The notes below the pieces were generated by a model. The model made no database searches and was not told where the DNA came from. It worked only from the letters and a program-made list of their open reading frames with translations. Positions 9,240-10,252 of a DNA stretch of 64,000 nt are shown here, in pieces (position 1 is the stretch's first letter; each line of letters opens with the position of its first letter). The DNA is from a virus (Duplodnaviria > Heunggongvirae > Uroviricota > Caudoviricetes). Both the position numbers and the translations under genes were made by a program. The stretch lies in the IMG/VR virus record IMGVR_UViG_2939521961_000011; one strand, 5' to 3'.

Positions 9240-9392
9240 ATGGATACGCTCAATCTTGGCAACAACGAATCTCTGGTATGCGGAGTATTCTCCAACCTGG
9301 ACGGCACGTTTACCGCGATGACGTATACCAGAAGCAAAACGTTTAAAACTGAAGCTGGCGCGCGTCGCTGGTTAGCCAGAAACACTGACTGA
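9240..9392 (+). CDS. DUF1391-type small protein (YdfA/YdaF-like)
   Basis: 50 aa MDTLNLGNNESLVCGVFSNLDGTFTAMTYTRSKTFKTE...; paralog at 56540..56692; GAGG RBS. Confidence 0.7.
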   Translation: MDTLNLGNNESLVCGVFSNLDGTFTAMTYTRSKTFKTEAGARRWLARNTD

Positions 9393-10042
9393 TGAGGTTG
9401 ACGATGGAATTTAAAGATTTACCTCCTTCAATCCAGGAGATTGCAGCACACACACTTCGTCATCGTCTGAACGAACTTGAATTGGAATCGGTAACGAAAA
9501 AAGACACTGATAATATGGCTCGTAATGTGCGCGATGCGTTTACCGGATTGTATTTCTGTGCGTCTATAAATAAACACGACTCAGAGAGTGTGGCAAATAA
9601 AATTGCAGAAACGACAGCGCAAAACATCAATACGAAACCAACGGAAGAAGAAATTGATCAGTTTGCTCATGATGCTGGTTTAAAAAACAAGAAAGAAAAA
9701 TCGCCATATGCGGGGAACATGTTTGTTTATGACAATCTCATCAGAATTCGTGGCGAAATTCCGGCGGAATACCTGGCAAGAGTCCATCAGGCATTGCTTA
9801 AAAATTTGGAAACAGAATTATTTGATGGCAACACTAACGGTTTCTTCATGGTATCAGGCCTTGAGAAAGACTGGGATGCAGAAAAACGCTGGAATGTTGC
9901 TACATGGTTATTCAGTAACAGAGCCGCTGCACTGGAAGCTTCGGCATGTATTTGCGGCCTGTTCTTAACAGACCACAAATATAATCTGGATGTGTACAGT
10001 TATATTTACGCTGAACACGGTCCACTCTGGATTGACTGGTAA
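9392..10042 (+). CDS. Hypothetical protein in the repressor operon (rex/sieB-equivalent position)
   Basis: 216-aa ORF whose ATG overlaps the upstream stop (TGATG); no recognisable motif. Confidence 0.55.
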   Translation: MRLTMEFKDLPPSIQEIAAHTLRHRLNELELESVTKKDTDNMARNVRDAFTGLYFCASINKHDSESVANKIAETTAQNINTKPTEEEIDQFAHDAGLKNKKEKSPYAGNMFVYDNLIRIRGEIPAEYLARVHQALLKNLETELFDGNTNGFFMVSGLEKDWDAEKRWNVATWLFSNRAAALEASACICGLFLTDHKYNLDVYSYIYAEHGPLWIDW

Positions 10043-10252
10043 TTATAAGGAAACACCAGCAGGGCCGCGGCGACCAACAGAACGATTAAAATCAATAATG
10101 CCATTATAAAGGACATTATTTAATTTATCGTCGAATGCTGATTCTGTGAGCCTCAACTCTGAATGAGTTTTTAATAACCCTGATTGCCTGAGTTGATTTA
10201 CCAGGCATTCAATCTGTTTTTCAATAAGCGGATTTCTTTTTTTGTTTGGCAT
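10043..10252 (-). CDS. Hypothetical small protein, convergent with the 216-aa gene
   Basis: 69 aa from an ATG with a GGAGGA RBS 5 nt upstream; stop codon abuts the stop of the convergent gene. Confidence 0.4.
   Translation of the reverse strand: MPNKKRNPLIEKQIECLVNQLRQSGLLKTHSELRLTESAFDDKLNNVLYNGIIDFNRSVGRRGPAGVSL

Follow-up and report, generated by a model that had tools for sequence, protein, structure and literature searches.

In pore-forming colicin operons (A, E1 and Ia), a repressed colicin gene faces a convergent, constitutively expressed immunity gene, and in the polymorphic toxin-immunity cassettes of the CdiA-CT/CdiI and Rhs types, a constant N-terminal part is joined to interchangeable C-terminal domains, with a small gene after each. 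Here we analysed a 64,000-nucleotide (nt) stretch of Caudoviricetes DNA (IMG/VR record IMGVR_UViG_2939521961_000011, referred to as the window), which belongs to a Qin-type lambdoid prophage whose integration site adjoins rspB, and examined two convergent genes encoding proteins of 212 and 69 amino acids (aa) in the slot between a ydfA-like gene and the DicF small RNA (sRNA). The two proteins lie outside any known family, and their architecture resembles known kinds. We found that the C-terminal domain of the 212-aa protein and the 69-aa gene are a conserved convergent unit, and that the 212-aa/69-aa unit is one allele of an exchangeable early-operon cassette. The features of the cassette in the window are as follows.

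9240–9392, forward strand: ydfA-like gene, DUF1391, 50 aa (Pfam DUF1391, 2.6e-28).
9404–10042, forward strand: gene of the 212-aa modular early protein ('Ybl81' family, PHROG 2151), with a possible alternative coupled start at 9392.
9404–9568, forward strand: N-terminal module (N-module), residues 1–55, MEFKDLPxxIQ...NVRxAFxxLY, common to many small prophage proteins with other tails.
9552–10246, no strand assigned: variable core of the cassette; homology ends at ~9552–9611 on the left and resumes at ~10240–10312 on the right.
9692–10039, forward strand: C-terminal alpha/beta domain (C-domain), residues 97–212, supported by an AlphaFold2 model, alignments and the ratio of nonsynonymous to synonymous substitution rates (dN/dS).
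10043–10252, reverse strand: convergent 69-aa partner gene (PHROG 4274, WP_001133037.1), with the conserved C-terminal tail GRRGPAGVxL.
10253–10316, reverse strand: 5' leader of the 69-aa gene with its Shine-Dalgarno sequence, also present before the type B and type C partner genes.
10317–10339, no strand assigned: inverted repeat GCCGGACACGGATAAGAATCCGG, which bounds all cassette types on the right and occurs in K-12 Qin and in Salmonella elements as well.
10347–10375, reverse strand: candidate promoter of the 69-aa gene, -35 TTTTCA, 17-nt spacer, -10 TAAACT (position weight matrix (PWM) score 10.2).

The two genes were almost invariably found together. All 74 IMG/VR loci encoding the 69-aa protein have the 212-aa gene adjacent and convergent, with a gap of 0 nt between the stops in 71 of the 74, so that no IMG/VR locus had the 69-aa gene but lacked the C-domain. 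The C-domain query was matched over at least 80% of its length in 597 complete E. coli genomes, and the 69-aa gene query, at the same coverage, likewise in 597. The linkage extends to two divergent Salmonella proteins, P0189 and P0176, in which the N-terminus is unrelated to that of the window protein and the C-domain is 27–38% identical; P0176 additionally contains an inserted HTH_3 domain (26.2 bits, cut-off 23). Both are set among an integrase, a helix-turn-helix (HTH) repressor and a Cox or Ner-like switch rather than DicA/ydfA, with no ydfA, and a convergent 69-aa homologue with the tail RRG(T)PAGVxL is present behind both. In the P0189 locus (L003) this tail is written with different codons, which indicated selection on the peptide. 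The linkage holds down to ~30% identity of the C-domain and spans three different N-terminal architectures as well as two types of switch.

Selection was measured against alleles that are 14–30% divergent. In the 212-aa gene, the C-terminal part gave a dN/dS of 0.15–0.18, and the 69-aa gene gave 0.19–0.27; because both are under purifying selection and the exact sequence of each was found on ~1000 contigs, both are real genes. Within E. coli, the synonymous divergence (dS) of the C-domain (0.50–0.63) and of the 69-aa gene (0.31–0.55) was steadier than that of the N-terminal part, which is mosaic (dS 0.12–0.96, dN/dS ratio omega 0.4–0.8). This difference points to recombination at the domain junction that does not split the C-domain from its partner.

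The 212-aa protein itself is modular, with the N-module followed by a C-domain confined to Escherichia and Salmonella. The original prediction had described a 216-aa gene with no recognisable motif, coupled to the ydfA-like gene. The open reading frame (ORF) at 9392–10042 on the forward strand does contain 216 codons, and its ATG at 9392 overlaps the ydfA stop (TGATG), so that it is a possible coupled start; the start shared by the Prokaryotic Genome Annotation Pipeline (PGAP), PHROG 2151 and every homologue is ATG 9404, which is preceded by a Shine-Dalgarno sequence 6 nt upstream (GAGG, 9394–9397) and gives a product of 212 aa beginning MEFKDLP (WP_000394548.1). The absence of a recognisable motif was borne out: neither the 212-aa nor the 69-aa protein matched Pfam, NCBIfam or PADLOC, and sequence and profile searches against PDB chains returned nothing under E 0.1 for either. 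Within PHROGs, the larger protein falls in family 2151 and the 69-aa protein in family 4274, both of unknown function. Full-length homologues of the 212-aa protein are 65–100% identical, their named records come from Escherichia and Salmonella, and some are labelled 'Ybl81'. When 185,579 species were scanned, each represented by a single genome, neither gene was found, and no paper describing either gene was found in the literature searched.

When 1.84 billion representative proteins were searched with HMMER, only 55 matches were obtained, nearly all of them restricted to query residues 1–55 and belonging to small proteins of 42–200 aa with unrelated tails, and the C-domain recurred only in P0176 and P0189. 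The N-module is predicted, in a low-confidence model, to form a helical hairpin (helices 8–24 and 32–55). The C-domain was modelled by AlphaFold2 with a predicted local distance difference test score (pLDDT) of 74.8 and a predicted template modelling score (pTM) of 0.70, in the order beta-beta-alpha-beta-beta-alpha-beta, and contains the motifs PYxxMFxYDxLIxIxGxIPxxY and FDGxxNGxF. In alignments, the residues invariant in both branches of the C-domain are chiefly hydrophobic, plus FDGxxNGxF, and no obvious set of catalytic residues was found among them.

To sort the wider family, relatives were retrieved with the N-module only and grouped by tail, which gave at least 288 confirmed relatives. 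Among the matches listed, seven tail types were found behind the N-module, and five of the seven have their own convergent small ORF abutting or overlapping the stop. The types are given below, with counts among 5,426 complete E. coli genomes at a coverage of at least 80% of the cassette core.

Type A: forward gene of 212 aa, convergent gene of 69 aa, stops abut; 597 of 5,426 genomes.
Type B: forward gene of 112–119 aa, convergent gene of 64 or 68 aa, overlap of 11–32 nt; 152 of 5,426 genomes.
Type C: forward gene of 186 aa, convergent gene of 80 or 84 aa (Zn-ribbon-like), overlap of 43 nt; 24 of 5,426 genomes.
Type D: forward gene of 135 aa (also in phage Evi), convergent gene of 77 aa, overlap of 22 nt; 650 of 5,426 genomes.
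Type E: forward gene of 201 aa, convergent gene of 63 aa, overlap of 22 nt; 8 of 5,426 genomes.
Type F: forward gene of 147 aa, no convergent ORF; genomes not counted.
Type G: forward gene of 124 aa, no convergent ORF; genomes not counted.

Carriers of type A are mostly Shiga toxin-producing E. coli (STEC) of serogroups O157, O26, O111, O145 and O103, and positions 9100–10400 of the window match E. coli O26:H11 strain 11368 and many other STEC genomes at 100%. The convergent small ORFs belong to five PHROGs of unknown function (4274, 4987, 10133, 10348 and 2605). At the type D and type E cores PGAP lists two hypothetical proteins, and in the one type-B locus inspected it annotates the reverse gene. 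The partner proteins of the different types are small and structurally unrelated, being helical or Zn-ribbon-like, and immunity proteins are likewise usually small and structurally unrelated to one another. The partners of types A, B and C have their first codons, MEDKM, and a leader of ~60 nt in common. A type-C N-module protein at L247 1347–1907 carries the PGAP name 'RNA-binding protein' (WP_432757426.1), without support from Pfam or NCBIfam.

DNA comparisons showed that the cassettes have both flanks in common: on the left the dicB promoter region, ydfA and the N-module to ~9552–9611, and on the right, from ~10240–10312, the leader and GCCGGACACGGATAAGAATCCGG. A Salmonella locus (L004, 6001–7500) carries a type A unit (200 + 69 aa) and a type B unit (119 + 64 aa) in tandem, with the N-module, leader and inverted repeat duplicated, one set per unit; further downstream in the same locus are three isrK / C4-antisense RNA repeats with Phage_ASH genes. 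Between K-12 Qin and O26, homology ends at the end of ydfA and returns at ~10312, and the intervening K-12 genes, ydfB and ydfC, are forward and unrelated. This break showed that the slot between ydfA and ~10312 is exchangeable. K-12 ydfB-ydfC thus occupy the same slot, from ydfA to GCCGGACACGGATAAGAATCCGG upstream of DicF, and are also uncharacterised (PMC5069750); unlike the window pair, both are on the forward strand and unrelated in sequence, and K-12 has neither an N-module protein nor a reverse gene there. No homology to the N-module was found in K-12 YdfB, YdfC or YdaG.

DicF and DicB affect cell division, phage resistance and the regulation of virulence in enterohaemorrhagic E. coli. 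The genes and sites that set the pair in the operon producing them are listed below.

8352–8582, reverse strand: dicC, Cro-like, 76 aa, opening the rightward replication operon (Pfam P22_Cro, 1.3e-11; PGAP name dicC).
8666–9073, forward strand: DicA-like immunity repressor, 135 aa, HTH_3 (Pfam HTH_3, 6e-16; 93% identity to K-12 DicA).
9065–9095, no strand assigned: 13-bp inverted repeat resembling a terminator, where the repressor gene ends (repeat scan and sequence).
9109–9162, forward strand: dicB promoter (dicBp) with two repeats (PWM score 11.9; conserved with K-12; dicBp function from PMC5069750 and PMC10448788).
10591–10642, forward strand: DicF sRNA (Rfam RF00039, 75 bits, E 6e-16).
10817–11005, forward strand: dicB, 62 aa (Pfam DicB, 6e-37).
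11002–11190, forward strand: DUF1482 gene (gene listing of the window).
11283–13745, forward strand: ORF of an 820-aa exonuclease, 3' of dicB and the DUF1482 gene (gene listing of the window).

The DicF and dicB leader that had been predicted downstream of the pair was thus recovered by Rfam and Pfam. Between DicF and dicB, positions 10640–10849 on the forward strand resemble the Rfam family STnc100, below its threshold (34.7 bits, gathering score 47, E 5e-5), and in related loci a product of similar length to the 820-aa exonuclease (818 aa) has both Exonuc_VIII (RecE) and Rv2179c-like 3'-5' exonuclease domains.

The 212-aa gene lies downstream of dicBp and ydfA and upstream of DicF/dicB on the same strand. 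The promoter is a good sigma-70 match (-35 TTGACC at 9134–9139, 17-nt spacer, -10 TAATCT at 9157–9162), its stretch is conserved with K-12, and two copies of TGTTAGTCATGGC, at 9109–9121 and 9144–9156, are likely repressor operators, the second of which fills the promoter spacer. In K-12, dicBp is repressed by DicA, relieved by the Rem antirepressor and on in stationary phase or in a subpopulation, and DicF is cut from a polycistronic transcript, with dicBp as the sole promoter producing it (PMC5069750, PMC10448788); transcription from dicBp crosses the ydfA–DicF slot to yield DicF (PMC10448788). Because the terminator-like repeat and dicBp separate the repressor from the 212-aa gene, the latter comes second, after ydfA, in the early-left (dicBF) operon under repression, and the 69-aa gene lies within the same operon in antisense orientation.

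This bears on the earlier placement of both genes at a rex/sieB-equivalent position, a likeness that is only loose. For the 212-aa gene the placement did not hold: it is in a repressed operon, with the repeat and dicBp between it and the repressor. The layout of co-transcription with the repressor seen for lambda Rex is therefore not present, and there was no PADLOC or Pfam match. For the 69-aa gene the placement has a parallel in K-12 Rac (L246, 5172–5812), where sieB (forward) converges on ydaF (DUF1391, reverse) with a 4-nt overlap. In both, an opposing gene converges on the DUF1391 side near the immunity repressor of a DicA/RacR-type prophage, the reverse-strand 69-aa gene being one gene further along than Rac sieB. 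The two nevertheless differ in that SieB has 162 aa rather than 69, has no conserved forward partner domain and shows no homology to the 69-aa protein, which gave no BLASTP alignment to Rac SieB and no Pfam match. A defence or superinfection-exclusion role for the gene pair is conceivable; PADLOC-DB 2.0, searched at E up to 1, returned 0 families for the 212-aa protein, the 69-aa protein and YdfA. The earlier placement had not recognised the two genes as a conserved pair belonging to a polymorphic family of cassettes.

The convergent 69-aa gene was found as predicted, with a GGAGGA ribosome-binding site (10257–10262) 4 nt before its ATG and a stop directly abutting that of the 212-aa gene (TAA 10040–10042, TTA 10043–10045, zero gap); translation from another in-frame ATG, upstream at 10264, would lengthen the product from 69 to 73 aa. 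Further upstream, GCCGGACACGGATAAGAATCCGG occurs once in the window, against 0.01 expected by chance. K-12 Qin has it too, following ydfC, as do the Salmonella loci L003, L004 and L162. It may form a stem-loop at the 5' end of the reverse transcripts, mark a boundary of recombination or bind a protein. The -10 of the candidate promoter lies 7 nt upstream of GCCGGACACGGATAAGAATCCGG, and the same spacing was found in L004 (TGgTATAAC), L162 (TGaTATAGG) and L003 (CAGCAT). A -10-like hexamer at constant spacing in four contexts would fit reverse genes that have a promoter of their own, and suggests that the reverse transcript may start at the base of the 5' stem-loop. Scanning the junction of the two convergent genes revealed neither an intrinsic terminator nor a strong hairpin, so each transcript should enter the opposing gene.

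Two other candidates in this region were rejected. One was a promoter for the 69-aa gene, TTAACC-18-TAAAAT (10280–10251), whose -10 overlaps the start codon. The other was a 36-aa hydrophobic ORF, MSFIMALLILIVLLVAAALLVFPYNYQSIQSGPCSA (10006–10116, reverse strand), considered as a hidden type I toxin, which has no Shine-Dalgarno sequence and is absent in L003. It is read in a different frame across the 3' end of the 69-aa gene and extends into the last part of the 212-aa gene. Most E. coli variants and Salmonella L004 keep this frame open, but its conservation is lower than that of the 69-aa frame, and it is probably a by-product.

Taken by analogy with colicin and immunity genes, the pair may be a repressor-controlled early effector with a cognate antidote expressed in the lysogen, a reading that we favour tentatively and hold to be somewhat short of probable. 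The forward gene would then encode a modular early protein, with a constant helical N-module, a flexible linker and a family-specific C-domain, transcribed only from DicA-repressed dicBp, and the 69-aa protein would be the cognate partner of the C-domain, probably made from its own promoter in the lysogen. The small protein would bind and neutralise the C-terminal 'effector' domain in the fashion of an immunity protein or antidote. In the lysogen the effector would be repressed and the antidote present; upon derepression of the prophage, or infection by a related phage, strong early transcription would run antisense through the 69-aa gene and silence it, and the effector, followed by DicF and DicB, would be made. 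The sequence comparisons show that both genes are real, that the 212-aa protein is modular, that the pairing is strict, where the cassette ends, and that it lies inside the operon; that the two proteins bind and antagonise each other, that the 69-aa gene has its own promoter, and that the pair has a toxic or excluding effect is what we infer here.

Comparison with the described systems showed where this analogy applies. As in colicin operons, a repressible forward gene faces a small cognate partner on the opposite strand, here with a candidate promoter of its own, the 3' ends abut or overlap, and the partner type co-varies with the variable C-terminal domain. Unlike in colicin operons, there is no similarity in sequence or fold and no lysis gene, the partners look soluble rather than membrane-bound, and the forward protein is an intracellular phage early protein without an export or receptor domain, whose toxicity is putative. 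As in CdiA-CT/CdiI and Rhs systems, the constant N-module is combined with exchangeable C-domains, each of five of the seven types having its own small gene among the matches listed, with conserved flanks that permit swapping and with tandem units (L004). Unlike in those systems, the partners are convergent rather than co-directional, the location is a prophage early operon, and the N-module has only ~55 aa and no secretion signal.

Several observations weigh against an effector and antidote. Among the matches listed, tail types F and G have no partner ORF, PGAP calls the type-B forward gene a truncated pseudogene, and the pairing in types B–E could be simple block inheritance; the dN/dS of types B–E, 0.26–0.45, pointed to constraint, with very few substitutions, too few to decide. 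The candidate promoter of the 69-aa gene is weak and was read from sequence, and its sequence is also present in K-12, which is without the reverse gene. In 8 of 80 IMG/VR loci, the A7 run in codons 3–5 of the 69-aa gene (~10236–10244) is one A shorter, which produces a frameshift; these cases could be slipped-strand variation or homopolymer sequencing error. Finally, a 162-bp deletion (window 10089–10250) removed the 69-aa gene and left the 212-aa ORF intact in L082, L083, L087 and L249–L252. As an antidote the 69-aa gene is thus dispensable, at least for as long as the operon stays repressed.

In the lineages with the full deletion, the 212-aa protein ends in IDWFKG, with a gained C-terminal FKG, and in 69-aa-deleted loci the loop after FDGNTNG (equivalent to window 9830–9880) is altered, with W changed to R in the L087 type. 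In L249–L252, and in L084, where only the C-terminal tail of the 69-aa gene is disrupted, this loop is replaced by SGPAGAL(G/E)R, which resembles the partner tail GRRGPAGV in protein and not in DNA. These loop changes in 69-aa-deficient loci could reflect compensation or chance. Between the cassette and the conserved DicF leader, a reverse-strand gene of ~170 aa, Zn-ribbon-like with CxxC, was observed in two 69-aa-deleted loci (L087, 5532–6290; L249, 4800–5312) and in a type-C locus (L247, 2232–2744), and library searches gave no family match for its product.

The deletion lineages would also fit two independent accessory genes inherited as a block, which we consider possible though rather unlikely. 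The 69-aa gene would be a lysogen-expressed moron with a function in exclusion or conversion, comparable to Rac sieB, and the 212-aa gene would encode an unrelated early host-takeover or anti-defence protein that makes no contact with it. A moron would have its own promoter and its own terminator; the 69-aa gene has the promoter-like site at 10347–10375 on the reverse strand with its conserved -10 position, and no terminator was found after the gene. Rac sieB occupies the same convergent spot after a DUF1391 gene, other reverse-strand insertions occur nearby in some loci (the 170-aa Zn-ribbon protein for example), several lineages have kept the 212-aa gene after losing the 69-aa gene, and types F and G are partnerless. 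Independence is at odds, however, with a linkage that persists to ~30% identity through three N-architectures and two switch types despite frequent recombination just left of the C-domain, with the fact that the 69-aa gene was never found apart from the C-domain, and with the lack of SieB homology and of a PADLOC model match.

An improbable alternative is that the pair is regulatory, the C-domain serving an early regulator for sensing or oligomerisation and the 69-aa protein antagonising that regulator, with convergent transcription also tuning the amount of dicBp transcript that arrives at DicF and dicB. The fusion of the C-domain to a bona fide HTH_3 in P0176 (26.2 bits against 23), and the position of the gene directly after Cox or Cro-type switch genes, speak for a regulator, and so do the processing of K-12 DicF from a transcript that must cross this slot (PMC10448788) and the absence of any terminator found between the convergent genes. 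The window 212-aa protein, however, has no DNA-binding domain by Pfam, core regulators are not normally swapped as polymorphic cassettes with unrelated tails and partners, and K-12 Qin controls the operon without either gene.

Least likely, and in our view very unlikely, is a classical toxin-antitoxin or abortive-infection module, constitutive for both genes in the lysogen, in which a labile 69-aa antitoxin would restrain the 212-aa toxin until an infecting phage stops host expression: a two-gene prophage unit with a small partner near the immunity region, in a prophage that also has RelE/ParE and hokD modules, would suit it, but the 212-aa gene is inside a DicA-repressed operon with no internal promoter found in the promoter scan, the genes are convergent and not co-transcribed as in a type II toxin-antitoxin pair, the 212-aa gene stays whole where the 69-aa gene has been naturally deleted, and toxin-antitoxin and defence models (Pfam, NCBIfam, PADLOC) were unmatched. 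In these modules the RelE/ParE toxin is accompanied by an HTH antitoxin, and hokD is a type I toxin; they lie at ~3100–3950 of the window, a few kb upstream of the replication genes, with positions converted from the L001 annotation by adding 3099.

The cassette family is common in E. coli and is located in the operon that yields DicF and DicB. Extending the effector-antidote reading by analogy, Qin/Rac-type prophages of Escherichia and Salmonella might carry a phage-borne polymorphic effector-immunity system, in which an early protein that joins the constant N-module to exchangeable effector domains would be countered by a cognate small protein made from the opposite strand by resident prophages. 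The latter would thereby exclude or discriminate related incoming phages by cassette type, and convergent transcription would act as an on/off switch that also gates DicF/DicB; this broader proposal is doubtful. If the pairs are effector-antidote units, they would constitute a new layer of phage-phage or phage-host conflict in the early operon and a source of unexplored small inhibitor proteins, and the convergent gene could account for strain differences in the expression of DicF and DicB.

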